DNA of 64,000 nt from Thermoproteota archaeon (GCA_027492035.1 JAOZFT010000032.1:7170-71169), one strand, 5' to 3'. Counted from the stretch's first letter, positions 19,725 to 62,512 are shown. Notes: generated by a model from the letters alone, not told the origin. Numbers and translations: made by a program.

Positions 19725-21422
19725 ATGTGTAGGGGAATAAACTTGTTTAATTCCAAAAAAATTGATGAAATGAAAAAGAGCATAGACAAGTGGGAAAAAA
19801 CTACTTTAGAAGAATCCTTGAAGCTTAAAAGTGAGAGGAAAAAGGAATTCTTCACTTCTTCAAACATAGTGGTTAAAAGGGTTTATACTCCCCTAGATAT
19901 TGCAAACAAAGACTATCTAAAGGAAATAGGTTTACCTGGAGAATACCCTTTCACAAGAGGGATTCATGCCACCATGTACAGGGCCAGAATATGGACAATG
20001 AGGCAGTTTGCAGGTTTTGGAACAGCCGAACAAACGAATAAAAGATTTAAATACCTACTTCAACATGGAGAGACAGGTTTAAGTGTAGCTTTTGATTTTC
20101 CAACTTTGTGCGGGTACGATTCAGATGATTTAATGTCTAAGGGGGAAGTTGGAGCTTGTGGAGTAGCAGTTGACACTTTGAAAGACATGGAAATACTGTT
20201 TGAAGGGATTCCCTTAAATAAAGTAACTACAAGTATGACTATTAACGGCCCTGCAGCAACTATTTGGTCCATGTACATAGTTACTGCTGAAAAACAAGGT
20301 GCAAAAAAGGAAGAACTCGGCGGCACAATCCAAAATGATATCTTAAAGGAGTATATGGCACAAAAGTCATTTATCTTTCCTCCTGAGCCCTCGCTTAAAC
20401 TGGTGGTTGACACAATAGAGTATGCTTCAAAATACCTACCTAAATGGAACCCTATAAGTATTAGCGGCTACCATATAAGGGAAGCTGGAGCTAACGCTGT
20501 TCAAGAATTAGCTTTCACTTTAGCTGATGGATTAACATATGTTGAAGCCACTTTGGAGAGAGGTTTAAAAGTTGATGACTTCGCTCCACGCTTATCTTTC
20601 TTTTTCGCTTGCCACAATAACTTCTTTGAAGAAATAGCTAAGTTCAGGGCTGCAAGAAGGATATGGGCTAGAGAAATGAAGGAAAGATTTCAAGCCAAGA
20701 AGAAAAGAAGTTTATGGTTAAGGTTTCATACCCAAACCTCAGGTTGCACATTAACAGCCCAACAACCTTACAACAACATAGTAAGGGTTGCTATTCAAGC
20801 TTTGGCTGCTGTGCTTGGGGGTACTCAAAGTTTACACACTAACAGCATGGATGAAGCATTAAGTTTACCTACTGAATTCGCTGTAAGAATAGCTTTGAGA
20901 ACGCAGCAAATAATAGCCCATGAATCAGGCGTAACTGATACAATAGATCCGTTAGGGGGGTCATATTATGTTGAATGGTTAACTGATAAAATGGAGGAGG
21001 AATGTTACAAATACTTTGACAAAATAGATAAGCTAGGAGGGGTTGTGGAGGGAATAAAAAGAGGGTTTTTCCAAAAAGAAATTGCTAATTCAGCTCATAA
21101 GTATCAAGAAGGTATAGATAAAGGGGAGATAATAGTGGTTGGTGTTAACGGCTACGCAACTGAAGAATTAATGCCTGTTCCCATTTTCAGAATTGAGCCA
21201 GAAGTTGAAAAGAAACAAATTGAAAGGTTAAAAAGGGTTAAAATGGAAAGAAATAGTAAGAAGGTTGAGGAAGCTATTGATCAACTTAAAAAAGCCGCTG
21301 AAAAAGAAGAAAACCTTATGCCTTACATAATAAATGCAGTGAAAGAGTATGCAACCTTGGGAGAAATCACTAAAGCTTTAAAAGAAATTTATGGAGAATA
21401 TCATGAACTACTAATTTACTGA
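19725..21422 (+). CDS. Methylmalonyl-CoA mutase large (catalytic) subunit, paralog 1
   Basis: 565 aa with the (beta/alpha)8 mutase core motifs (RGIHATMYRARIWTMRQFAGFGTAEQTNKRFKYLL; [21 protein letters not shown]). Confidence 0.9.
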   Translation: MCRGINLFNSKKIDEMKKSIDKWEKTTLEESLKLKSERKKEFFTSSNIVVKRVYTPLDIANKDYLKEIGLPGEYPFTRGIHATMYRARIWTMRQFAGFGTAEQTNKRFKYLLQHGETGLSVAFDFPTLCGYDSDDLMSKGEVGACGVAVDTLKDMEILFEGIPLNKVTTSMTINGPAATIWSMYIVTAEKQGAKKEELGGTIQNDILKEYMAQKSFIFPPEPSLKLVVDTIEYASKYLPKWNPISISGYHIREAGANAVQELAFTLADGLTYVEATLERGLKVDDFAPRLSFFFACHNNFFEEIAKFRAARRIWAREMKERFQAKKKRSLWLRFHTQTSGCTLTAQQPYNNIVRVAIQALAAVLGGTQSLHTNSMDEALSLPTEFAVRIALRTQQIIAHESGVTDTIDPLGGSYYVEWLTDKMEEECYKYFDKIDKLGGVVEGIKRGFFQKEIANSAHKYQEGIDKGEIIVVGVNGYATEELMPVPIFRIEPEVEKKQIERLKRVKMERNSKKVEEAIDQLKKAAEKEENLMPYIINAVKEYATLGEITKALKEIYGEYHELLIY

Positions 21423-24199: not shown

Positions 24200-25885
24200 A
24201 TGAATAGGAGCAATTTAGAAAAAATAAGTAAGGGCAAAAAGGAATGGGAGGAAAAACAATTGAAGAACCTTTTGAAGAAAGCACCTGAAAGAAAGAGTGT
24301 TTTCAAAAATTCCTCAGGAATAGAAGTGGGAAGGGTCTACACCCCCCTTGAGATCCAAGGTTTTGATTACTTAACCAAGTTAGGCTTCCCCGGCAGTTAC
24401 CCTTACACTAGAGGCCCCTATGCAACAATGTATAGAGGCAGGTTATGGACCATGAGGCAATACGCCGGCTTCGGAACAGCTGAAGAAACAAATAAACACT
24501 TCAAATACTTGCTGAGTCAGGGTCAGACAGGTTTAAGTGTAGCTTTCGACTTGCCTACACAGATAGGCTACGACTCTGATCACCCCTTAGCTAGAGGGGA
24601 AGTAGGGAGGGTGGGTGTAGCTGTTGATTCATTAAAAGACATGGAAATACTATTTCAGGGGATTCCTCTGGACAAAGTAAGCACCTCAATGACAATTAAT
24701 GCACCCGCCAATGTGTTATTGGCGATGTACTTAACCCTAGGGGAAATGCAAGGTATAAATAGATCTCTTTTAAGAGGAACTGTTCAGAACGACATATTGA
24801 AGGAATACATTGCTAGGGGAACCTACATCTTTCCTCCAACACCCTCACTGAAAATAGCTGTAGATGTTTTTGAATTTTGTTCGAAAGAAATGCCTAAATG
24901 GAACTTCATAAGCGTAAGTGGCTACCATATGAGAGAAGCTGGGGCTAATGCTGTTCAAGAATTAGCTTTCACTTTAGCTGATGGGTTAGCTTACATAAAT
25001 GCTGCTTTAGAAAGAGGTTTAAAAATTGATGACTTTGCTCCCAGGATCTCCTTCTTTTTCGCTTGCCACAATAACTTCTTCGAAGAAATAGCTAAGTTCA
25101 GGGCTGCAAGAAGGTTGTGGGCTGAAATTTTAAAGGAAAAGTATTCTCCAAAGAAAGAAAGATCCTTACTTATGAGGTTCCACACTCAAACCTCAGGTTG
25201 TACATTAACTGCTCAGCAGCCTATGAACAATATAATACGTGTAGCTTATCAAGCTTTGGCTGCTGTGCTTGGGGGTACTCAAAGTTTACACACTAACAGC
25301 ATGGATGAAGCCCTATGTTTACCCAGTAAACAATCAGTTAAGATTGCTTTAAGAACTCAACAAATCCTAGCTTATGAAACAGGCGTCTCTGACACTATAG
25401 ACCCCTTAGGTGGATCCTATTACCTTGAATGGTTAACTGATGAATTAGAAGAAAAAGCTAGGAAGTATATTGATGAAATAGAGGAAATGGGGGGAATGGC
25501 GAAAGCTATTGAGAAAGGATTTATCCAGAAGGAAATACTTGAAACAGCTTATCACTACCAGAAAGAAATAGAGAAAGGAGAAACTGTAGTTGTGGGAGTG
25601 AATAAATTCAAGGAAGAAAGGGAAGAAATAAAAATTGAAATTTTCAACGTTTCAAAACTTGAAGAAACAGCTAAAATGCAAATTAAAAAACTTCAAATAG
25701 TTAAAAGAGAAAGGAATAAGTCTAAGGTTGAAGAGGCATTGTGTAAACTAGGTAAAGCGGCTGAAAAGAATGAAAACCTTGTACCTCCAATAATTGAGGC
25801 AGTTAAAGCTTATGCCACTTTAGGAGAAATATGTGGTGTGTTAAGAAACATTTATGGGGAGTATAGAGCCCCAAATATTCTTTAA
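24200..25885 (+). CDS. Methylmalonyl-CoA mutase large (catalytic) subunit, paralog 2
   Basis: 561 aa, roughly 70% identical in protein to the ORF at 19725-21422, with several 40-60-nt stretches of perfect nucleotide identity. Confidence 0.9.
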
Positions 25886-44540: not shown

Positions 44541-46241
44541 ATGAAATATTCCCTAGTTTTAACAATTTACTTGCCTTTACTCTTGATTTTTCTGTTTTCT
44601 TTCACTTCTAACATCCGCTGCTTAAACTCCTATGACCTTAACCCTCAGAACCCTTTAGAAGCTAAGAGTGACAAATGTTTCTCTTTAACTCTCCCACTTC
44701 AAGGTTCACGGTTTCAGAAGGGGACAAGTCTAAACCATAACCTATCAAGTAACTTAACTCCCCAAATCCAGTTAGAAGTTTTACCTCATTACCAAACAGC
44801 CAGATTTAAGAGTTTTGTGTCTTATCTCCTCCTTATTAAAGTAATTAATGTGACCAAAAATGTAACTATACATCTTAAAGTAAGTGGTTTACCTTTTGAA
44901 ATGAATCCCACCTTTGGAGAAACACGTTACTTGTCAAAGAATTCTGCAACTGTTGAATTGTTGCTCTACTCAGGTAAAAAGGAAGGAGTTTACTCCTTCA
45001 ACGTTACGGCTTCAGCTCCTAACACAAGTAAGGGCTTCTGTAATGTTCAATTGCGGGTAGTTAATATAGAAAAAGACTTTTCTCTTCCCCTAAATAGATA
45101 CAATGCTAAGGTAGTGCCTGGAGGCAATCTCATCTTTTCAGTTTATATAAATCCTATAAATGGATATAATAGACTTGTCGCTTTAAGCTGTCCAAATTTA
45201 CCTGAAGGGTTTAAAATAAAATTCACGCCTTCAAAGGCGTATCCGTCTTACAATGTCCAAATTAATTTATCAATACCCGAAAATGTTAAGCCTCAGGAAA
45301 AGATTTTTGTTATAGAGGGTGAAGACAACCAAGGGTTGCATCATGCCTCAATTTTCAGGTTAGGAATTCTTGAACCTGGTTCAATAGATTTCAAACTGAA
45401 AATCAAACCAGAGAAAGGAAGTGTTCTCCAAGGTGGGAAAATATATTTTAAAGTCGAAGTAATCAATTTGACACAGGAAAAAGATAAAGTTTTTCTTTTT
45501 GTTAAAGGCATCCCAAACGACACCTTGTACGGGTTTGGGGAAGATGAACTTGAACCTCCGGGTGAATCAGATCTTGTTATTCAAGCAGGAAACATAACAG
45601 GTACTTACCTTTTCACAGTCTATGGTGTGGGGGGAGGTTTAAAAAGAATAACTCATGCAACCCTTACAATCAAAAAGAAAGAATGCTTTATAGCTACAGC
45701 CACTTTTAATTCAGAAGTTTCAGATGAAGTCAATACTTTAAGAAAATTCAGAGACAGCCTGATACTTAAAACCTACACTGGAACCCTGTTTTACAAAGTG
45801 TTTGATGAAATTTATTACGCATTCAGTCCACAAATAGCTGAACAGGAGAAGGTTAATCCCTCTCTCCAACTCTTTTTCAAATTCACACTTTATCCATTAA
45901 TCTACACCCTGAAACTAGCAACTTTTGTCTCTGAACCACTTTCTTACATAAACTTGGAAGCAGCCGCCTTAACAGCGGGGGCAATAGCCTCTTTTTTGCT
46001 AGGCTTCATTTATATAAGCCCCCTTATCTTCATCGTTTCTAAAATGGTTGGGGGAAAAGTTAAGTTCTGGGAAGAAATAAAAGTCTTTTTACTCCTTTTC
46101 TTAATCTCTTCTATGTCAATAATGGTAGGGGTTATCTTTAGGGAAAACAATTTAACAACATTCTTCATCTTCAGTTACATCATGTCCTTCCTTTACTTAG
46201 GTACCGTATCTGCTCTAAACTTTCTAAATAAGTTCTTTTAA
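44541..46241 (+). CDS. Secreted/membrane-anchored protein with a C-terminal CFIATAT...LRKFRD module plus TM tail
   Basis: N-terminal signal/TM; the motif KKECFIATATFNSEVSDEVNTLRKFRDSLIL at 45675-45764 is followed by about 160 aa with 3-4 TM helices. Confidence 0.6.
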   Translation: MKYSLVLTIYLPLLLIFLFSFTSNIRCLNSYDLNPQNPLEAKSDKCFSLTLPLQGSRFQKGTSLNHNLSSNLTPQIQLEVLPHYQTARFKSFVSYLLLIKVINVTKNVTIHLKVSGLPFEMNPTFGETRYLSKNSATVELLLYSGKKEGVYSFNVTASAPNTSKGFCNVQLRVVNIEKDFSLPLNRYNAKVVPGGNLIFSVYINPINGYNRLVALSCPNLPEGFKIKFTPSKAYPSYNVQINLSIPENVKPQEKIFVIEGEDNQGLHHASIFRLGILEPGSIDFKLKIKPEKGSVLQGGKIYFKVEVINLTQEKDKVFLFVKGIPNDTLYGFGEDELEPPGESDLVIQAGNITGTYLFTVYGVGGGLKRITHATLTIKKKECFIATATFNSEVSDEVNTLRKFRDSLILKTYTGTLFYKVFDEIYYAFSPQIAEQEKVNPSLQLFFKFTLYPLIYTLKLATFVSEPLSYINLEAAALTAGAIASFLLGFIYISPLIFIVSKMVGGKVKFWEEIKVFLLLFLISSMSIMVGVIFRENNLTTFFIFSYIMSFLYLGTVSALNFLNKFF

Positions 46242-52099: not shown

Positions 52100-55000
52100 T
52101 TAAGCCTTCTCCTCCACTGGAAAAACTGTTTTGTTGGGGCCTTGCCTAAGAAATAACTTTAGAATATGAGGTGTAGTTAAAGCTGTGAAAGCGATGAAAG
52201 AAATAATTAGGAGAGTGGCTGAGATCATTGCTAGGGTGCTGTTATGCAAAATCTCGCTCATTGTTAAAAGTAACAATGGAGTTACTGTAAGCAAAGTTTT
52301 ATTTAAGAGTTTCTTTTTATTTTTTAATTGAATTTTCTCTCTTTCGCTTCTACATTCCTCAGCTCCTTTCCTTTCCTTCCATTCCTTATGAATACTCAGT
52401 GGTAAACCTAAGTAGGTGAAACCTAGTAACATACTTACAATTAATCCTGCCGTTATGGACCCAATTTCTTTGTTTATTTTGAAGATTGGAAGTGTCAGGG
52501 TTGCTGCTGCATGTAGGGAGCCTATTAATGGGTAGAGGATTGTTTTAAATATTGGTTTGGTTTGTGGGTGTTTGTAAATGAAATCTGCAACGTACGGACT
52601 GAATGAATAATAGAAAAGGTTAAACGCTCTATAGAAATTCTTTCCAATGAAGGAAGAAAGAATGAAACGGTTCCTGAATTTCCTTAGGAAAATAACTTCT
52701 GGAGATAATTCTGAACCGTAAGTGGCTGTTGCTATGAAACATTTCCTTTTTTCGACCATTAACTTGATTGTTTTCTTATGTGTAACACCTCCTCCTGAAG
52801 CTTTAATACTCACCAAGAAATATCCTGTAGTGGTTCCTGTTTTGATTGTTAGGTTAGCTGTTTCTCCTGTTTTTAAGTTCTTAGGTATCAATTTATAACT
52901 AGCATCTTCAGGTAAACCTGTAATCTCCAGTTTTATCGTTTGAGGCTGCCCCTTAACAAGAGAAACTTTAACTGTTATGTATGTTTTCTCTCCCTCCTCG
53001 ATTTTCACTTCCTCAGGTTCAACTCTTAATTTAAAGTCAAAACCTGTGGAAGGGTGCTTCTTTTTTTCAGTGACATGTAAAGTCAAGGTGCAGCTGTGTA
53101 TTTTGTTATCTGTCCCTGTTGCCTTCACCATTAACTTGTAAGTTCCCGACGGACATGAATCGGACACTGTAATTTTCATTTCGGAGTTGAAATTAGGCTT
53201 AGCCTGGGAAGGGTTAAACTTTACCCCTATATTCACTGGCGGAGTTGAACAACTCAATGTCACGTTATTGCTGTAACCTGATGTAGAAGTAACTGAAACA
53301 GCTAATGTTAATGATTCCCCTGGCACTATTTCGATGTCTTTTTTATTTAACGCTATATTGAAGTCTCTAACTGGTTTTTCCTGAATTATTAACACGGCAG
53401 GTGCGCTGCGGATTAAATCTCCACTTGAAACATTAATTGTTAATTCGTAGTTTCCAACAGTGTTCCCTGCTTGAATGTTTACTTTAATTTTTTTGCTTCC
53501 ACCTGTACCGTTTTCAGGCGGAGATACTTGGTAATAGGTGTCTGAAGGCAGGTTTAGGACAGTGACTGCTACTGTTTGGATTGTGAACGAACCTGTAGGA
53601 GTTAAGGTTAGGGTGTAGCTTGTGTTTCCGCCTTGGTAAACTACTCTCGTTGGAGGATTAATCAATAACTGGAAACCTGGTGCTTCTCCCCTTATTACTA
53701 ATGTTTCATTTACAGGATTTGACCATGCTCCTTTGTTATCTTTCACTTTAAAGGTTATTGTGTGGTTGCCTGGTGATAAGTTAGAAATAGAAAAAATAGC
53801 TTGGTTGCTTAGGTGCCCGTCTATGTTTGAGTCCCAACTGTAGCCTGTAATTGCCCCATCTGGGTCTGAACCATGTCCTGTAAAGGTTACAGTATCACTT
53901 ACATTTGCTGGGTTAGGGGTTATTGAGTCAATAAATGCAACAGGTGGTTGATTAGCTGTACTTACTACTTGAACTGGAACCACAACATATTCAGACCATG
54001 CTCCTTCATTATCTTGAACCCTTAAAGTTATGTTAAACGTGGCAGGGAGTGAATAAGTATGATTAATTGTTTTTGAAATGTTGTTCCCGATTAAATTGCC
54101 TGTAACAAGTGGGGAGCCATCTCCCCAAGCTATTTCATATTTTGTGACGTTTCCATCTGGGTCAAACCCTGCGAAACTGAATACGATTTCCTCACTTACA
54201 TTTACGGGTGCAGTTGGATGCTCTAGAACTAAGGTGATAGGTGGTTTATTTCCTGAAATTCTTTGGTTGTAAGTATTGCTTGACCAAATCCAGTAATACA
54301 TTTTTTCGGTGTTAGAGGAGAAATTTAGGTAGTAAAGTTTGTTGGGGTCACCTGAATCTGTTATTTCTCCAATAGAGGGTACTTCAACAAGTGAATCCTT
54401 TACAAAATCAAATAGGTTAGCAACAGTTGCAGTTGTTAAGGTGGTGTAAAATAAGAAATTGTTTTTTTCGCAAGCGAAAATCCACCCTATTCTCCCTATG
54501 GAGGGATTAGCTACTGCTAGCATGAAAGGTTCTCCCGGTGGAAAAATAATAGAGTTGCTGTTTGGAGCCTTTACACTACCTTGACTGTAAGAGTTACGTG
54601 ACCAAATAGCGAAGTCAATATTTCCTTGGAGTGAGTGAATAAAAAGTGTATAAGGGTTTGTGCTGCTTCCTGAATCCTTAACTTCAGCTAGGCTAGTAAG
54701 ATTTATTAAGATGTCTTGGTTACTGTCGCCAATGTTTACAAATTGGGGGGACTCTTTACTTGAAGAAACAAGAATGTTACCGTGTTTAAAACAGAAAATC
54801 CATCCAGATTTATTTGAGGAGGGGTTTATAAGAGTTACAACGAAAAATTTTGAATCAGGGAAGGGCACTTGCACAAAACTTCCAGCTGAAACCGACCCTG
54901 AGAAATAAGAACCATAAAACCATACAAAGTAGTAAAGTGTCGAATTAAAAGCATATATCTCTAAAATAAGGGGCTGTGCCGGATTGCCTGAATCCCTAAC

Positions 55001-55285
55001 TCCACCTAAACCTGAAACATTTATTAAAACCTGTTTTGAAGTATCATTTAAGTAAGCGACATTAGTTGCTGTTAAAGGTGACGAAACTAAAATGTAATCC
55101 CTCTCTTTACTAAAAACTAGCCCTAGGCCTTCACCAGCTGAAAATCCTCCAATAAAAAACTTATTGCTTGGAAACTCGATTCCGCCAGTTAAAGCCTGAG
55201 AGAAAACAGGAGAAACATGTAATGACAAATCAGGAATCAAAATAAGTGAAAGGAGAAAAAGAATATTGTAAAATCTTTTCAACAT
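52100..55285 (-). CDS. Large secreted PKD-domain surface protein with a C-terminal CFIATAT...LRKFRN module plus TM tail
   Basis: Signal peptide; two PKD-like repeats (IAWGDGSP...HTYSLPATFNITLRVQDNEGAWS; ...HTITFKVKDNKGAWS); the motif KRKCFIATATYGSELSPEVIFLRKFRNRFIL (nt about 52660-52745), then a multi-TM C-terminus. Confidence 0.7.
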   Translation of the reverse strand: MLKRFYNILFLLSLILIPDLSLHVSPVFSQALTGGIEFPSNKFFIGGFSAGEGLGLVFSKERDYILVSSPLTATNVAYLNDTSKQVLINVSGLGGVRDSGNPAQPLILEIYAFNSTLYYFVWFYGSYFSGSVSAGSFVQVPFPDSKFFVVTLINPSSNKSGWIFCFKHGNILVSSSKESPQFVNIGDSNQDILINLTSLAEVKDSGSSTNPYTLFIHSLQGNIDFAIWSRNSYSQGSVKAPNSNSIIFPPGEPFMLAVANPSIGRIGWIFACEKNNFLFYTTLTTATVANLFDFVKDSLVEVPSIGEITDSGDPNKLYYLNFSSNTEKMYYWIWSSNTYNQRISGNKPPITLVLEHPTAPVNVSEEIVFSFAGFDPDGNVTKYEIAWGDGSPLVTGNLIGNNISKTINHTYSLPATFNITLRVQDNEGAWSEYVVVPVQVVSTANQPPVAFIDSITPNPANVSDTVTFTGHGSDPDGAITGYSWDSNIDGHLSNQAIFSISNLSPGNHTITFKVKDNKGAWSNPVNETLVIRGEAPGFQLLINPPTRVVYQGGNTSYTLTLTPTGSFTIQTVAVTVLNLPSDTYYQVSPPENGTGGSKKIKVNIQAGNTVGNYELTINVSSGDLIRSAPAVLIIQEKPVRDFNIALNKKDIEIVPGESLTLAVSVTSTSGYSNNVTLSCSTPPVNIGVKFNPSQAKPNFNSEMKITVSDSCPSGTYKLMVKATGTDNKIHSCTLTLHVTEKKKHPSTGFDFKLRVEPEEVKIEEGEKTYITVKVSLVKGQPQTIKLEITGLPEDASYKLIPKNLKTGETANLTIKTGTTTGYFLVSIKASGGGVTHKKTIKLMVEKRKCFIATATYGSELSPEVIFLRKFRNRFILSSFIGKNFYRAFNLFYYSFSPYVADFIYKHPQTKPIFKTILYPLIGSLHAAATLTLPIFKINKEIGSITAGLIVSMLLGFTYLGLPLSIHKEWKERKGAEECRSEREKIQLKNKKKLLNKTLLTVTPLLLLTMSEILHNSTLAMISATLLIISFIAFTALTTPHILKLFLRQGPNKTVFPVEEKA

Positions 55286-55577: not shown

Positions 55578-56120
55578 ATGGCTCACGAAGTCTGTTTGAA
55601 CGTGGTTGTAACAGGTAAAGTTCAGAATTTCGGTTTCAGAGAATTCACTGTCAATTTAGCGAACATACTTGGTTTGAAGGGGTATGTTTTTAATGATGTG
55701 GATGGCACCGTCAAAATGGTTGTTGCTGGAAATAAAGAAGAAATCCTTGGCTTTTTAAATGAACTAAAAAGTAAATCCGGTAAAACAGGGGCTGTGATTG
55801 AAGAAATTAATTTTTCAGAAATTGGAGCTACAGTTTTTCTTCCTCCTAAATTTGTTAAGCTCGAAACTGAAGAAGTTATGGATTTAGCAAGAAAATTTGA
55901 TAAAGGAATTGAAATTTTAAGAGAAATAAAAAATAATACAGAAGCTATTCCGAGGGTTGAAAGTGCCATCCAGGAAATGAATGTGAAGCTTGGTAAGTTG
56001 GACAATGTGGAAAAGGGTATTAATGAATTGAATACTTCCATTAAATCTAACACTGAGTACTTAAGAAAGTTGGGGGAAGCTATCTTGGAGATCCTAAAGA
56101 AAAAGAGCATGGAAGAGTGA
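55578..56120 (+). CDS. Acylphosphatase-like domain fused to a C-terminal coiled-coil region
   Basis: N-terminal VVTGKVQNFGFREF and GYVFNDVDGTVKMVVAG match the two acylphosphatase signatures. Residues about 95-180 are heptad-rich. Confidence 0.55.
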   Translation: MAHEVCLNVVVTGKVQNFGFREFTVNLANILGLKGYVFNDVDGTVKMVVAGNKEEILGFLNELKSKSGKTGAVIEEINFSEIGATVFLPPKFVKLETEEVMDLARKFDKGIEILREIKNNTEAIPRVESAIQEMNVKLGKLDNVEKGINELNTSIKSNTEYLRKLGEAILEILKKKSMEE

Positions 56121-56123
56121 AAA

Positions 56124-57980
56124 TCAGGTCTGTTTTTCTAGTTCTTTCTTAAGGAAACTTAAAATTATTTCTTCATTGTTCTCGGTTCCCACAAAAATTG
56201 GTATGTTTTTTCTTTTTGTTGCGGTATGGGAAATAAAAATCCACTCCCCTGGCTCCAGCTGAGAAGTTTTTTCAAGTATTTCTGGGCTAACTCCAGCTGC
56301 TTCTGCTACAACATGCCTATCATAGCTCCTAGGTAATGTTCCGGTAAAGTATGAATGAATCTGTTGGATAGCGTTTACGTTTAAATGGGCTACTCTTTGT
56401 GTAGCAACCCAGCAGTGTAAACGATACTTTCTTCCTTGCCTTAACAGTCTTTCCACTGCCTCATTTGATTGCCAAGTATAATCCTCCCTCCTCACCCTGT
56501 CAGGTATGAATTCCTGGGCTTCATCTATGACAACCAGTACTCTAGATCCTCTGCTAGTGTATTTTCTCAGCTTGAAAAGATTGCTTATTAACTTCTCAGT
56601 TAAAATTCTTGTTTTTAAAGGGTCAGGAGTATAAAGTATAAACAGTCTGCACTTTTCTTCCTCTACAGTTTTTATAGCTTCTAAAGCTATTTTTTCAGGG
56701 GTGTATTCTACTTCCTTAACTTTAGCAGATTCTGACGAGGTTGAATCTATAACCCTTACTACTTCTTCAATTACGTTAATTACTTTGTAAACTCTTTTCT
56801 TCTCTAGATCCGCTGCTTCTTCCTTAAGTACTTTCTTTATTTCATCTATTGCTTGAGATTTTTCCTTAAATACTTCACTTAATTCCTTGCTTGGATTTAT
56901 TCCTTCCTTTTCAAGTATGTTTTTCAGTTTTCCATAGATTTCTCTTGACCTAAACTTTGTTACTGGATGTAGATCATTAAACAAGCTTTCAAATGACTCA
57001 AGTACTTCTTTGAAACTCAACTTTTTACTTGTTAAATCTAAACGTTTTACTTTACTTTCTTTGAAAAGTTTTGTAACTTGATAAGCTATTTTCTGATAAA
57101 CCTCTTCTTCATTTTTTCCCAATTTTTCTAAAAAAGTTTCTGGTATAGCTTGTGAGGCAATGAAAGCACCAATAGGGTTTTCAGTCCCGAAATAATTCTC
57201 TGTTGAAAGAATTATTCCCTCCTCCAAAACCTTGTCCAGTAAGTTGAGGGAGTACTCGCCAGGTATGTCGATTACTATAACCTTTAAATCATCTAAGTTG
57301 TCCATCAACCTCCTTACCAGTAAAGATGTTAAATTGGATTTACCGGCTCCTGTAAAACCGAAAACTCCTACGTGGTGGCTTATAAGTTTAACAGGGTCAA
57401 CCTTTAAAGGGTGGTTAAACCCTGCCATGACCCCTATACTCATTCCGTTTTCGAAATTCACCAATTTATTAACAGCTTTAGTTGAAAGCAAAAAGGTTTC
57501 TGCCCCTACAAGAGGCATCATGGTTTCATCTCTGACGAAATCAACTCCTTTATTCCTTAAATCCATTAAGTAACCAGTGTAAACTGCATGTATATCTATC
57601 CATGTATCCTCTGTCTCACCCCACATTCTATATATTTTCTCTAGGAAATCAAGCCTTATTGGTTTAGGTAGAGAAATATCCATGGAAAGCTGTTGGTAAT
57701 GCATAGGGTTTGTGCTTACAACTTCATAAATTAAATATTTTTCTCTTTCCTTCATAGGCCTTTTTAAAGCTAAAAAACAAGGTTTCCTCAATCTGTCTAA
57801 AACTTCTAAGTTAAAAGAAGCCTCAAATGTTCCAACTATACTTTTTAAGGTGATTCTTCCTTCCTCTATAGAAGTCACTTTTATGTGGGTGCTTCTAAGT
57901 CTAGCTTTAAATTTTCCGTTTAAATCGTCAAGAAAGGGATTCCCTTCTTCTGAATTTTTCTCTTGCATGTTCAGCTTCAC
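56124..57980 (-). CDS. HerA/DUF87-family hexameric ATPase (HerA-like)
   Basis: Walker A GFTGAGKSN (about 57337-57360), Walker B VLVVIDEAQEF, and a sensor WVATQRV (TQR). An N-terminal region of about 200 aa precedes the ATPase core; 618 aa. Confidence 0.7.
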   Translation of the reverse strand: MKLNMQEKNSEEGNPFLDDLNGKFKARLRSTHIKVTSIEEGRITLKSIVGTFEASFNLEVLDRLRKPCFLALKRPMKEREKYLIYEVVSTNPMHYQQLSMDISLPKPIRLDFLEKIYRMWGETEDTWIDIHAVYTGYLMDLRNKGVDFVRDETMMPLVGAETFLLSTKAVNKLVNFENGMSIGVMAGFNHPLKVDPVKLISHHVGVFGFTGAGKSNLTSLLVRRLMDNLDDLKVIVIDIPGEYSLNLLDKVLEEGIILSTENYFGTENPIGAFIASQAIPETFLEKLGKNEEEVYQKIAYQVTKLFKESKVKRLDLTSKKLSFKEVLESFESLFNDLHPVTKFRSREIYGKLKNILEKEGINPSKELSEVFKEKSQAIDEIKKVLKEEAADLEKKRVYKVINVIEEVVRVIDSTSSESAKVKEVEYTPEKIALEAIKTVEEEKCRLFILYTPDPLKTRILTEKLISNLFKLRKYTSRGSRVLVVIDEAQEFIPDRVRREDYTWQSNEAVERLLRQGRKYRLHCWVATQRVAHLNVNAIQQIHSYFTGTLPRSYDRHVVAEAAGVSPEILEKTSQLEPGEWIFISHTATKRKNIPIFVGTENNEEIILSFLKKELEKQT

Positions 57981-59748
57981 TCCTTATATCCCTAAATCTT
58001 CTTGAAATGAAAAATGCCTTGTTTTTAGAGGCTACTTTGCTAATCTCTAAATCAGCAACTCCCTTAATTGCGAACCCAGCTTGTTTAGCTAATGCTTTAA
58101 CATATTTATCAGCTAGAAACAGGAGGTGATTATGCCCAGACTCCTCTATAACGTTTGGGTTGTCTGTACAGCTTAAAATATACAGAACAATATCTCCCAC
58201 TCTACTCGTAGTTTCTTGTTCAAAAAAGGGCTCCAACACTGCTTCGCCACTAAATTCCCTAACTTCAATTTTTTTGACTAGTTTCTCATCCCATGAGGGA
58301 TAGTAGGGTCTGTCATAAACAAAAACAGGGCTTCTAAGAGAAACATCCTTCGCTGCACATCTTAATTGAAAATATCCTTTAATGAACCTTTTCTCTTGAA
58401 GAATAACCTTCCTTGCAGCTTTTAAAGCGCAATTATTTCTTTCACTTTTTACCGTGGTTGTTAACGAAGAGTCATATTCGATGGTTCTCCAAGGGACAGG
58501 TATTTCAAAATAATTTAAAGCGCTTAGAATGGATAGAAGAGCTTTGTCACTTTTAAATGTTGGGAGAGCCTCCTTACTTGGTTTTGGTTCACTTAAAAAT
58601 TGGAAGGTTGGGATAACTGACCTAACCATGTCAGTTGCAGTTGTGTCCTTAGCTATGCCAATAACTAATTTGCTTTTTTCTTTAGCTTCGTTCATTAAGA
58701 AATGCAGAGTTAACATGTTAATCGTGTTTATGTCAAGGGTTGTAACCCATTTTTCCTCTTTACCTTTCCAAAGGAGAGGATGCCCATCTCTTCCATTGAA
58801 AATTTTATTTCTTATTTTTTCTGAAGCTTCCCAAACTCTTTCCCAATAGAAACAAGTGTTTTCTGCAACAGTTACCTCACCTTCCTCTATTTCTTCAAGA
58901 AGTAAGCCGTTATGTTTTTCGTTTAATCTCTGGAGTTTATCAAGATAAAACTTAACCTTTTCTTTAGGAAGGTTTAACGCGGTAGGTAAATCATCTATTC
59001 TTATTCTCTTCCTCCTATTTTTTATCAGGAAATTAATCAGTGCATAGACCCCGTAAACCCCTCTAAAAGGTAAAAACTCTTTTCCAGGACCAAGGTACCC
59101 AGCTAACTGTAAATCAAGCATTGAAGGCTTCCCTTTACTCGTGTCAATGCTAGTAATTACAGACTTCCCTTTCTTAATAAGTAACCTGAAATCTCTACTT
59201 GTTGGCCCATATGTTCCTGAAAGCGTCCGGTCGAGAAAAATAACCTTAACATCATTCTCTTTTAAAGCTTTAGTTGCAAGTGTAAGTTCTGAAAGGGTCA
59301 TCAATGCGGAAGGAACACTTTCAATTGATTTTTTAATTTCATAATCTGTAGAACCGCCTATTGATTCAAGGGCTATATCGGGTAAATCTTCAAGCCAAAG
59401 AGGCACAGCAGTTGAGAGGTAAATAGGTTCACTTCTTTCAGCTTTGGAGACATCAATTGAGACCTTTTTTTCATCGATGTTCATCTCTCCATAATAGGCT
59501 GCGGCGCAGATGTAAAAGAGAAGCATTTCAAGCCTTTCCTCTTGTGTCTGTGAACCATCTATTCCTACCAACTTATATCTTCCTTTCCCAAAAAATTTTT
59601 TAACATATTTTTCAGCTTCACTCTTATCCAGGGAATGAATTATTTTGATTAACTTCTTTTGTTTAGCTAAGTTAGAGACTCTCCTTCTAAATAAATCAAT
59701 TAAATCCGTTGTTCCCACATATATTTGGTCTATCCCCAAAAAAGACAT
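57928..59748 (-). CDS. NurA-like nuclease domain protein with a C-terminal extension
   Basis: GIDGS motif at 59551-59565, plus later VIFLDRTLSG and VIGIAKDTTATD segments resembling NurA catalytic motifs. 606 aa; overlaps the herA-like start by 53 nt. Confidence 0.5.
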   Translation of the reverse strand: MSFLGIDQIYVGTTDLIDLFRRRVSNLAKQKKLIKIIHSLDKSEAEKYVKKFFGKGRYKLVGIDGSQTQEERLEMLLFYICAAAYYGEMNIDEKKVSIDVSKAERSEPIYLSTAVPLWLEDLPDIALESIGGSTDYEIKKSIESVPSALMTLSELTLATKALKENDVKVIFLDRTLSGTYGPTSRDFRLLIKKGKSVITSIDTSKGKPSMLDLQLAGYLGPGKEFLPFRGVYGVYALINFLIKNRRKRIRIDDLPTALNLPKEKVKFYLDKLQRLNEKHNGLLLEEIEEGEVTVAENTCFYWERVWEASEKIRNKIFNGRDGHPLLWKGKEEKWVTTLDINTINMLTLHFLMNEAKEKSKLVIGIAKDTTATDMVRSVIPTFQFLSEPKPSKEALPTFKSDKALLSILSALNYFEIPVPWRTIEYDSSLTTTVKSERNNCALKAARKVILQEKRFIKGYFQLRCAAKDVSLRSPVFVYDRPYYPSWDEKLVKKIEVREFSGEAVLEPFFEQETTSRVGDIVLYILSCTDNPNVIEESGHNHLLFLADKYVKALAKQAGFAIKGVADLEISKVASKNKAFFISRRFRDIRSEAEHAREKFRRRESLS

Positions 59749-59977
59749 TTTCTAGCCTCTTTTTCGTAAGTGTTAAAAGATTTAGGTTCATAAAGTAATC
59801 TTATTTTATACGTGGGCTCCAATTAACTTTATAAAGGAATCTTTTCAAAGGTTTAAATCAATCCCCCCTTACGTAAATTTTTAAATGAAAAACCTTTGGA
59901 GTTTAAAGGTTTTTTATTCTTGATATCTCCTTAATTTCCTGTTTTGTCAAGTAAGAGATGTTTAGGTTGGTCTTGAA

Positions 59978-60969: not shown

Positions 60970-61668
60970 TTACTGTTTCTCTTTTTTCCCAATTAGTGGA
61001 AGGATTTCCTTCACTATATAATTTATAAACTGTTCCTGTGTAATTTTCGTAAAAACTGTAACGATCCCGTTCCGAGTTAACCCCACCACTAAATTGTTTG
61101 GTTTATCTTCAAAAACTACATACCAAATTTTCCCATGCTTTAAGTATTCCATATAAAGAGAACAGTCTGCTAAGCTTGGTCCGTAAAGGGATAATTTATT
61201 CACGTTCGGAATGTCCACTTCATCAAAAAATATAACTTTAGTAGATTCAGGGTTACTTTCATGTATTGTTTTTAAGGTGTTGTGAGGTATCTTTGCTTCA
61301 ACTAATCCTCCTGTTGGAACAAGCAAGATTTCCCTTATTTGATTAGCTACATTGTTTGCTTTTAGTTTCTTCTCCAAAACAATAAGGAAAATCTTTCTCC
61401 CTTCTTCAATCATTAAAAAAGGAGTTTGTTTTGTAACGGGTACGTTCCGTTTTTCTCCTTTAAAGCTTAAAGTTATTAAGTAATCGTAGGAGAAAATTCC
61501 CCTTAAAAAATTTTTTTGCAAAACCAATTCTTTTATTTCCTTAACCAAATCTATTTTCTCTTGATTTGTTTCTGTTTCTTCTACTTTCTTGAAGTTCTTA
61601 AGTTTCTGAGCTGCAACTTTTAAAGTTAAATCTGTTTCTATAGTGAAAATTTTAGCGGCTGAAACCAT
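60970..61668 (-). CDS. Hypothetical protein (232 aa)
   Basis: Long ORF with coding-like composition and a 4-nt gap to the upstream ORF. No recognisable motifs. Confidence 0.45.
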   Translation of the reverse strand: MVSAAKIFTIETDLTLKVAAQKLKNFKKVEETETNQEKIDLVKEIKELVLQKNFLRGIFSYDYLITLSFKGEKRNVPVTKQTPFLMIEEGRKIFLIVLEKKLKANNVANQIREILLVPTGGLVEAKIPHNTLKTIHESNPESTKVIFFDEVDIPNVNKLSLYGPSLADCSLYMEYLKHGKIWYVVFEDKPNNLVVGLTRNGIVTVFTKITQEQFINYIVKEILPLIGKKEKQ

Positions 61669-61672
61669 TCCT

Positions 61673-62512
61673 TTACTCTGCCTCTTCCTCCTTTACTTCT
61701 GACAAGAAATCCTTAATTTTTTTAACTTTTTCTTCCAGTTTTATTTTTTCGTAAATTTTCAATTCTCTACCTATCTCCTTCAGTGTTTCTTTTTTTATCT
61801 TTTCAGGAGCCTTTGAAAAAATTTCTTTCGCCTTTTCCTTCTTTCCTTTGAAAACTAAATCAAGAACATATTCATACAATCTCTTAGTGTAAATTGTTTC
61901 ATTACTCATGTAAATTACGTAACCAGCGTCATAATCTATTTCAACCTGTGTTATTTCTTCCTTTAATTCATCAATTCTAAGCATTGCCTTAAATGCCTCA
62001 TTGCTTAGAATTTCTGAGTAACTATACGCACTTATTACTTTGTCCAGTTTCTGTGCAGCTTTTTCCCCCATTGAATAAATTTCTTTTAAGTCTTCCCTTG
62101 TTAAGGGTACGTTAAATTTCCTGTCTTCAATTGTTAGATACCCCTCTAACCCTTTAACTTTGTCTGTGGGAAGTTTTAAACCTAGGAATCCATCGTAAAT
62201 GTAAACAGGTACAACTTCTTCTTTTCCATTTTGAAAAACTATTTTTACACATTCGTTCCAGAGTTTAGCACTTGTTTCTCCCAGAATCAGGTGCCTTCCA
62301 CCCTCTAAACCTGCTACTTGGAATTTGAAAGCCAGTTTCTTAGCTATTCCCCCCACAAACCCAAGCACTTCCGCTACAAAAAACTTAATCCATCCTTCAC
62401 TTGTTTTAACTTCAATCTCCATTGAACCTATAGGTTTAAAACCTATGGAGAGAAGGAAATCCAAAAATTTATTTTTCTCCATTTTCCTTGTTTCAATCCC
62501 TACCCAAGGCAA
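61673..62512 (-). CDS. Hypothetical protein (279 aa) with a Lys/Glu-rich C-terminus
   Basis: Long ORF, probably co-transcribed with 60970-61668. No recognisable motifs. Confidence 0.45.
   Translation of the reverse strand: MPWVGIETRKMEKNKFLDFLLSIGFKPIGSMEIEVKTSEGWIKFFVAEVLGFVGGIAKKLAFKFQVAGLEGGRHLILGETSAKLWNECVKIVFQNGKEEVVPVYIYDGFLGLKLPTDKVKGLEGYLTIEDRKFNVPLTREDLKEIYSMGEKAAQKLDKVISAYSYSEILSNEAFKAMLRIDELKEEITQVEIDYDAGYVIYMSNETIYTKRLYEYVLDLVFKGKKEKAKEIFSKAPEKIKKETLKEIGRELKIYEKIKLEEKVKKIKDFLSEVKEEEAE

Follow-up and report, generated by a model that had tools for sequence, protein, structure and literature searches.

The DNA analyzed here is a 64,000-nucleotide (nt) stretch from a Thermoproteota archaeon (GCA_027492035.1; JAOZFT010000032.1:7170-71169), which we refer to as the window. 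It encodes a NurA-like nuclease of 606 amino acids (aa) and, overlapping it, a HerA-like ATPase. The pair belongs to a distinct, uncharacterized clade that is defined by a ~600-aa NurA with a winged-helix and further insertions, plus its own HerA. Inheritance of this clade is mostly vertical in Thermoproteota outside the Thermoprotei (Culexarchaeia/Methanomethylicia, Bathyarchaeia, Nitrososphaeria, Brockarchaeota, and Nezhaarchaeales). We put the chances at about even that the pair is a resident chromosomal machine for processing DNA ends or breaks, which acts beside the canonical Mre11-Rad50-HerA-NurA set and does not replace it. A preliminary description of the window had proposed a specialized or defense-type HerA/NurA system. 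The genes are a real HerA/NurA pair, and our analyses make it plausible, and support in part, that this pair is specialized rather than canonical, given its discrete clade and a probable counterpart in the second pair of ammonia oxidizers. The defense-type half of that proposal is unsupported by context or distribution.

The long NurA and its HerA partner

Both open reading frames (ORFs) lie where the preliminary description had placed them, and both have full-length homologues (E ~1e-170). More than 100 were found for each protein, the closest non-identical ones with E values of ~1e-175 to 1e-219, and both ORFs are therefore real genes. All of the motifs that had been read from the sequence were confirmed by translation: GIDGS, FLDR (aa 171), and GIAKDT (aa 364) in the nuclease, and GFTGAGKS, VVIDEAQEF, and TQR in the ATPase (Table 1). 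The overlap of 53 nt described previously depends on starting herA at the first GTG (57980), which gives a 618-aa protein at 56124-57980. The ATG at 57968 is the more likely start, because the gene caller of another assembly picked it and because the HerA N-termini of homologues agree better with it than with the GTG. Among relatives, the most frequent nurA/herA overlap is 4 nt.

Pfam upholds the NurA assignment. The 606-aa protein matches PF09376 with 26.8 bits (cut-off 21; E 4.3e-6) across profile positions 3-107 of 254 and aa 60-296 of the protein, and precomputed PF09376 matches exist for some of its homologues. PDB sequence searches with the protein and with its family profile retrieved no NurA, so the link to NurAs in that database is made by fold comparison only. 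We used an AlphaFold model built on 21 diverse homologues, with a predicted local distance difference test (pLDDT) of 89 and a predicted template modeling score (pTM) of 0.88. The top ten Foldseek matches to this model are all NurA, with alignments that cover nearly all of it, and the best fold match of each of the two proteins is a Sulfolobus repair protein. In the model, the NurA fold runs through the entire 606-aa protein without a foreign C-terminal domain, and the surplus of ~270 aa over Sulfolobus NurA is made up of internal insertions between core elements. This replaces the earlier view that the C-terminal ~200 aa have no canonical counterpart. The C-terminal third also holds invariant D479 and R480, besides G538, D547, and K548 in the motif GHNHLLFLADK, which is placed on a loop and helix (541-575) ahead of the C-terminal helices. 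This motif marks the C-terminal third as part of the conserved nuclease and not as an appendage.

The main structural novelty is the insertion at ~aa 228-295. Its secondary structure is that of a winged helix, and secondary matches of the model are to ScpB, MarR/ArsR, and RPA32C. The insertion could bind duplex DNA or a partner protein, and provides a concrete, testable feature of this NurA.

In Sulfolobus NurA, the catalytic residues are D58, E116, and D133, together with the essential K202 (PMC3326311). Based on spacing and secondary structure, D64, D121 (with E120), D173, and K367 would be the equivalent set in the long NurA. D64 and G65 are invariant in the 21 diverse homologues, and the PF09376 match begins at the GIDGS motif that contains them. 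The second acidic position closes the third long strand; D121 is invariant, and at least 90% of sequences have E120. D64 and E120 are 56 aa apart, compared to 58 aa for D58-E116 in Sulfolobus NurA. D173 is at the end of strand 167-172, and GIAKDT lies on strand 361-366.

The second ORF is clearly a HerA/DUF87 ATPase (PF01935; 68 bits, cut-off 23.2), as previously assigned. Its N-terminal ~200 aa had been described as atypical, but this region is beta-rich and the model aligns with 382 of the 458 residues of Sulfolobus HerA, with family profile position 126 paired with Sulfolobus residue 74. We therefore read the N-terminus from the model as an ordinary HAS barrel, ~50 aa longer than that of Sulfolobus HerA. 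In the solved system, the HAS barrel binds NurA (PMC3326311). Over the 20-22 homologues used to judge invariance in HerA, R510, G512, R513, K514, Y515, Q524, and R525 are all invariant, as are the Walker residues (Table 1). On sequence grounds, the ATPase and nuclease residues, which are intact and invariant, speak for an active enzyme. Searches of PDB with the HerA family profile gave scores of 64, 58, and 55 bits that do not tell repair and defense HerAs apart.

In three Nitrososphaeria loci, the HerA P-loop (Walker A) is split by an intein with a LAGLIDADG_3 homing endonuclease, and a fourth case is probable. The domains detected were Intein_splicing and LAGLIDADG_3, and the intein-bearing genes encode ~1120-1140 aa (L044, 5583-8939; L051, 2405-5818; L082, 11721-15122; probably L043 from 6336).

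The closest characterized likeness is the Sulfolobus (Saccharolobus) solfataricus HerA-NurA system (PDB 4D2I, 2YGK). It shares the RNase H-like NurA core with N- and C-terminal helices, the HAS barrel and RecA-like ATPase of HerA, and adjacent genes, and the acidic residues and lysine of the window NurA probably occupy the matching positions. However, the solved Sulfolobus NurA chain (2ygk_B) has 319 residues compared to 606 aa here, with the surplus in insertions that include the winged helix. The window pair further differs in its gene order (nurA then herA), its lack of mre11/rad50, and a sequence similarity that is nearly nil. The stand-alone herA-nurA of Deinococcus radiodurans (PDB 7F6D) is bacterial, with a short canonical NurA that lacks the winged-helix insertion, and its proteins are lower structural matches to the window pair than those of Sulfolobus.

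Conservation, distribution, and chromosomal context

To map the module, we scanned one genome per species with the NurA-like protein as query. Relatives were found in at least 210 species genomes, and details were taken from 80 of these, nearly all of which are labeled Thermoproteota. These represent Culexarchaeia, Methanomethylicia, Bathyarchaeia, Nitrososphaeria including Nitrosocaldaceae, Brockarchaeota, and Conexivisphaerales; a HerA search adds Nezhaarchaeales and one Njordarchaeota record. The nearest relatives (~48% identity) are Culexarchaeia/Methanomethylicia metagenome-assembled genomes (MAGs). Assembly GCA_027491475.1 is from the same organism as the window, and contigs of 89 kb and 74 kb in two further assemblies bear near-identical copies (at least 90% identity); other carriers include OY970211.1 and JAVZJD010000001.1. 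In a neighbor-joining tree, sequences group largely by lineage. Two MAGs with bacterial labels carry an archaeal-type locus: L053 (DAIDAO010000037.1, "bacterium") clusters with the Nitrososphaerales clade, and L070 (DASQZS010000093.1, "Candidatus Acidoferrum sp.") with a Bathyarchaeia clade. These labels are probably the result of mis-binning or mislabeling.

nurA and herA form an operon that is both obligate and translationally coupled. They are adjacent in 83 of 84 loci (72 complete, plus 11 where the contig stops inside herA), and the pairwise identities of the NurA and HerA proteins are tightly correlated (r = 0.96 over 62 loci). The only exceptions to the nurA-then-herA order are in Culexarchaeum nevadense and one Methanomethylicia MAG (L006, 2106-6179; L009, 7722-11794), in which herA is divergent and upstream of nurA, with a gap of ~400 bp. 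When all ORFs of the 84 loci were clustered, no further gene proved to be conserved with the pair, and there was no cluster of mre11, rad50, or cas genes.

An exhaustive profile search of 1.84 billion representative proteins recovered only 404 relatives; the full-length ones are nearly all ~570-680 aa, and there is no canonical short NurA in the best 150 matches. On the HerA side, scores are far below cut-off for the NCBIfam equivalogs of double-strand break repair HerA (NF040819, 42.6 bits, cut-off 970; NF040937, HerA_Thermprot, 38.2 bits, cut-off 800) and of anti-phage HerA (NF042943, 75.5 bits, cut-off 800; NF042944, 31.4 bits, cut-off 850), and no NCBIfam HerA equivalog approaches its cut-off for the window HerA. 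Altogether, a profile that isolates long NurAs and misses PDB NurAs, along with the missed HerA equivalogs, indicates that this is a discrete family. Public annotation of the NurA-like protein is mostly "hypothetical protein" and in a few cases NurA, and its partner is called "DUF87 domain-containing protein" or "ATP-binding protein" and never HerA.

The window is ordinary chromosome. It includes nuo genes, two methylmalonyl-CoA mutases, a thiolase, an acyl-CoA dehydrogenase, and ABC transporters, and near the pair Pfam identifies an acylphosphatase, UbiA, two ORFs without assignment, and TyrRS. As noted in the preliminary description, the operon is not the textbook one and mre11/rad50 are not nearby. 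This was borne out by Pfam (none among 27 window ORFs, comprising 20 larger ORFs, the pair, and five neighbors), by a scan for Mre11/Rad50 motifs (zero matches in ORFs of at least 250 aa over the 1.5 Mb of the window and loci), and by ORF size (the three window ORFs long enough for Rad50, >650 aa, are all other proteins). The 64-kb window also lacks a CRISPR-like tandem array, and no tRNA or rRNA genes were found in it. At the other loci, contexts are likewise ordinary chromosomal, with several housekeeping neighbors that vary between lineages, and flanks are syntenic in Nitrososphaerales-type loci.

In three Bathyarchaeia species, the pair is flanked by rpl2 and rps19 and shares the strand of the ribosomal-protein genes, within an otherwise conserved L3-L4-L23-L2-S19 cluster (L001/L002/L062, 6807-14101; L045, 358-6841; L083, 1220-5337). 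In the Nitrosocaldus-like locus L020, rpl2 is ~3.5 kb upstream.

Candidate roles and the sister clade

Work on HerA-NurA has centered on a few model thermophiles and, of late, on bacterial defense systems. By analogy to solved complexes (PMC3326311, PMC12977600), a HerA hexamer would most likely use its HAS barrels to dock on a toroidal NurA dimer, and would spend ATP to feed DNA into that dimer, where two RNase H-like active sites would cut it in a metal-dependent manner. The winged helix may add an extra contact to DNA or to a partner.

That such a machine may work beside the canonical set is suggested by a published reconstruction of ammonia-oxidizer ancestors, which contains two HerA/NurA family pairs (Abby et al. 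2020, PMC7554672, Table S3). One pair accompanies mre11 and rad50 in all nodes, and the other disappeared in the ancestor shared by Nitrosopumilales and Nitrosotaleales (PMC7554672). The window family is found in Nitrosocaldaceae and in MAGs labeled Nitrososphaerales/Nitrososphaera, and no named match among several hundred is from a Nitrosopumilus- or Nitrosotalea-type genus. Four loci carry the order-level MAG label "uncultured Nitrosopumilales," three of which group with Nitrososphaerales-type MAGs on the tree. Because the distribution of the family matches the published loss pattern, we infer that it is the second pair of PMC7554672 (76G-FAM003221 and 76G-FAM000368) and that, at least in Nitrososphaeria, it is present together with the canonical set; the genome of the window may likewise contain both. 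The literature offered no useful repair-gene inventory for Bathyarchaeota or Culexarchaeia.

The pair could instead be the only HerA-NurA of its organism, performing canonical 5'-strand end resection with Mre11-Rad50 encoded elsewhere, although we regard this as unlikely. It would fit the ordinary chromosomal context and the Sulfolobus repair proteins as best fold matches of both proteins. A stand-alone herA-nurA operon that acts in recombination is known in Deinococcus (PMC12977600). Clustering with mre11-rad50 is a feature reported from thermophilic archaea (PMC7776575), so a pair that lacks this linkage is not exceptional in itself. However, the ammonia-oxidizer reconstructions place a pair of like distribution alongside a separate canonical pair and mre11/rad50, and the abundant Nitrosopumilus-type genomes lack the family even though they retain the canonical set. 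The extreme divergence also argues against it, as the profile finds no NurA in PDB and the repair equivalogs score only 38-43 bits against cut-offs of 800-970, as does a public annotation that never calls the partner HerA. If the pair is nonetheless an ordinary repair system, its annotation would be corrected, and gene order and missing mre11-rad50 linkage would prove to be poor indicators of function. An unlinked herA-nurA in Haloferax was also considered and rejected; a review states that Haloferax lacks both genes (PMC7776575).

Defense is a further possibility, one that we find rather doubtful: HerA-NurA would assemble on linear DNA that is foreign or unmodified and degrade it, as has been proposed for TdpAB and for CRISPR-linked Cas-HerA/Cas-NurA, with the winged helix as a sensor of a DNA feature or a partner. 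The best PADLOC model for the window HerA is PDLC01055 ("HerA, Type III coevolved"; 137.5 bits over aa 143-601), for which there is no published cut-off, and the NCBIfam model HerA_antiphage scores above the repair HerA models. Cas-linked HerA-NurA pairs are documented and are described as always associated with each other (PMC3973734), the same mutual association seen in the window pair. On the other hand, the window HerA scores less than half of what its sister clade (described below) does on PDLC01055, there is no cas or CRISPR near the pair, and all NCBIfam anti-phage equivalogs stay far under their cut-offs. The NurA-like protein has zero PADLOC matches, and on the flanks of the window PADLOC gave no meaningful matches and no cas or defense genes; no defense genes recur in the 84 loci. 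TdpAB (PDB 8WET), SIR2-HerA, and DUF4297-HerA rank below the Sulfolobus repair proteins as structural matches. The partner here is a NurA fold in place of a SIR2 or DUF4297 effector, and unlike TdpAB, the pair has no linked DNA-modification genes (dnd/PT or DpdA-like) among its neighbors. Its distribution is lineage-restricted and largely follows taxonomy, its position within the ribosomal-protein cluster is conserved in Bathyarchaeia, its flanks are syntenic in Nitrososphaerales, and the HerA genes of some relatives contain inteins. No copy was found in the 2.9 million viral contigs of IMG/VR. Altogether, defense is not supported for the window clade.

A further argument for defense comes from a sister clade. 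Its long NurAs (~600-630 aa) score 120-180 bits to the family profile over positions 40-559, and as in the window clade, the long NurA gene is directly followed by that of a ~605-aa HerA. In the sister clade only, these are the first two genes of a four-gene operon with overlapping frames, encoding a NurA-like protein (617-628 aa), a HerA-like protein (604-611 aa), a DpdA/TGT-like protein (292-388 aa), and a DUF6884/PDC-M57A protein (151 aa) (L085/L086, 8001-13284; L087; L088, 8001-13051). The third gene product has a weak DpdA match, and the fourth matches the candidate defense family PDC-M57A; both genes are absent from window-clade loci. The sister HerAs match the full PDLC01055 profile with 293-324 bits. 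Hosts are Desulfobacterales, Cyanophyceae, Armatimonadota, Anaerolineae, Terriglobales, and Peptococcaceae, plus a Nitrosotenuis MAG, with 44-54% identity. This scatter across bacterial phyla is the pattern expected of a horizontally mobile system, opposite to that of the window clade, and the four-gene module looks like an undescribed modification-linked restriction or defense module. At L085/L086, a QueD-like (PTPS) gene is just upstream of the operon, and at L088 ParE/RelB toxin-antitoxin genes follow it. Fused long-NurA variants also occur (P0350, 897 aa; P0418, 946 aa), one with a ~345-aa N-terminal extension; among them is an Armatimonadota member of the sister clade with an aldo/keto-reductase domain (PF00248).

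We tentatively suggest that the two clades represent two lifestyles. The mobile four-gene branch might serve in modification-linked restriction, with the DpdA-like protein as a base-exchange enzyme and DUF6884, predicted to bind DNA, possibly acting in base flipping. The window branch might be a domesticated, vertically inherited two-gene version that became a core second machine for DNA processing in most Thermoproteota outside the Thermoprotei, and its NurA with the winged helix would then have a chromosomal role unlike that of any HerA-NurA studied to date. This contrast between a vertical two-gene clade and a mobile four-gene clade is the most useful lead from our analyses, and provides a natural comparison for how a module moves between defense and core DNA metabolism.

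Finally, the pair may serve as a translocase in another chromosomal process, such as FtsK-like segregation or resolution or preparation for DNA transfer, with the nuclease secondary; this seems very improbable. HerA belongs to the FtsK-HerA superfamily, and FtsK, TrwB, and VirB4 are among the fold matches of the window HerA. A role of archaeal HerA in cell division has been raised as a possibility (PMC12977600), and generation of single-stranded DNA for Ced/Ted transfer has been hypothesized (PMC9905601). However, the nuclease residues do not vary within the family, an argument for cutting as a central function. In the 84 loci, the pair has no linkage to pilus, Ced/Ted, or division genes, and the NCBIfam CedD model gives only 48.5 bits (cut-off 600).

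Several points weigh against a second DNA-processing machine of the chromosome. The window HerA scores nearer to the defense models (137 bits for PDLC01055, 75.5 for HerA_antiphage) than to the repair models (42.6 and 38.2), and the sister clade resembles a mobile defense/modification module. The coexistence with the canonical set is drawn from a matched published distribution and not from sequence identity to those families. The catalytic equivalences are drawn from spacing and secondary structure and not from superposing residues on a solved NurA. On the neighbor-joining tree, taxon labels are coarse and several labeled groups are split. If the pair is such a machine, then Bathyarchaeia, Nitrososphaeria outside the Nitrosopumilus-type groups, and Methanomethylicia/Culexarchaeia carry a second, architecturally distinct HerA-NurA. 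These archaeal groups are large and environmentally important, and their copies are currently labeled "hypothetical" or "DUF87."

Gene coordinates and neighboring genes

The coordinates of the pair and its motifs are given in Table 1. Upstream of nurA, the divergent intergenic region contains two A/T-rich TATA-like boxes, TTTATAAA and TATAAAAT, ~50-80 nt before the nurA ATG, which are candidate promoter elements judging from their sequence.

Table 1. Positions of the nurA-herA pair, its domains and motifs, and the upstream intergenic region within the window
Feature	Coordinates	Strand	Remarks
nurA-like gene ("long NurA"), 606 aa	57928..59748	-	
herA-like gene, 614 aa from ATG 57968	56124..57968	-	overlaps nurA by 41 nt
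Divergent intergenic region, 229 bp, upstream of nurA	59749..59977		from sequence reading
NurA GIDGS motif, invariant D64, presumed first catalytic Asp	59551..59565	-	putative equivalent of D58
NurA E120-D121, presumed second catalytic acidic position	59386..59391	-	putative equivalent of E116
NurA FLDR motif (aa 171), invariant D173, presumed third catalytic Asp	59227..59238	-	putative equivalent of D133
NurA winged-helix (wHTH) domain inserted in core, ~aa 228-295	58864..59067	-	
NurA GIAKDT motif (aa 364), invariant K367 and D368	58642..58659	-	K367 presumed equivalent to K202
NurA C-terminal motif GHNHLLFLADK	58105..58137	-	G538, D547, K548 invariant; N540 in at least 90%
HerA N-terminal beta-rich domain (HAS barrel), ~aa 18-190	57399..57917	-	model strands at aa 22-190
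HerA Walker A GFTGAGKS	57336..57359	-	G207, G209, K210, S211 invariant
HerA Walker B VVIDEAQEF	56508..56534	-	D482, E483 invariant
HerA RQGRKYR (candidate arginine finger) and TQR sensor	56394..56441	-	putative function

On the other side, the acylphosphatase-coiled-coil fusion noted earlier is real based on Pfam: the gene at 55578-56120 (+) encodes a 180-aa protein with an acylphosphatase domain (aa 8-83) and a tail of ~95 aa that is predicted to form a coiled coil. This gene and herA are convergent, with stop codons 3 nt apart, and in other lineages it is not kept as a neighbor of the pair. The ORFs at 60970-61668 (-; 232 aa) and 61673-62512 (-; 279 aa) gave no significant match in Pfam, NCBIfam, or PADLOC. 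They were considered as parts of the system and rejected, as the UbiA gene, in opposite orientation, separates them from the pair, and in no other locus are they its conserved neighbors. A 566-aa ORF at 44541-46241 (+) likewise has no significant match in these three databases.

The gene at 52100-55285 (-) encodes a 1061-aa probable surface protein that contains PKD repeats and several Ig-like stretches and has a hydrophobic C-terminal region. In L084, from another assembly of this organism, the gene is again found next to the pair. The two methylmalonyl-CoA mutase genes are large-subunit paralogues (19725-21422, +, 565 aa; 24200-25885, +, 561 aa), both full-length and less than 5 kb apart. 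The thiolase gene is located in the interval, with acyl-CoA dehydrogenase and CoA-transferase genes at other places in the window.

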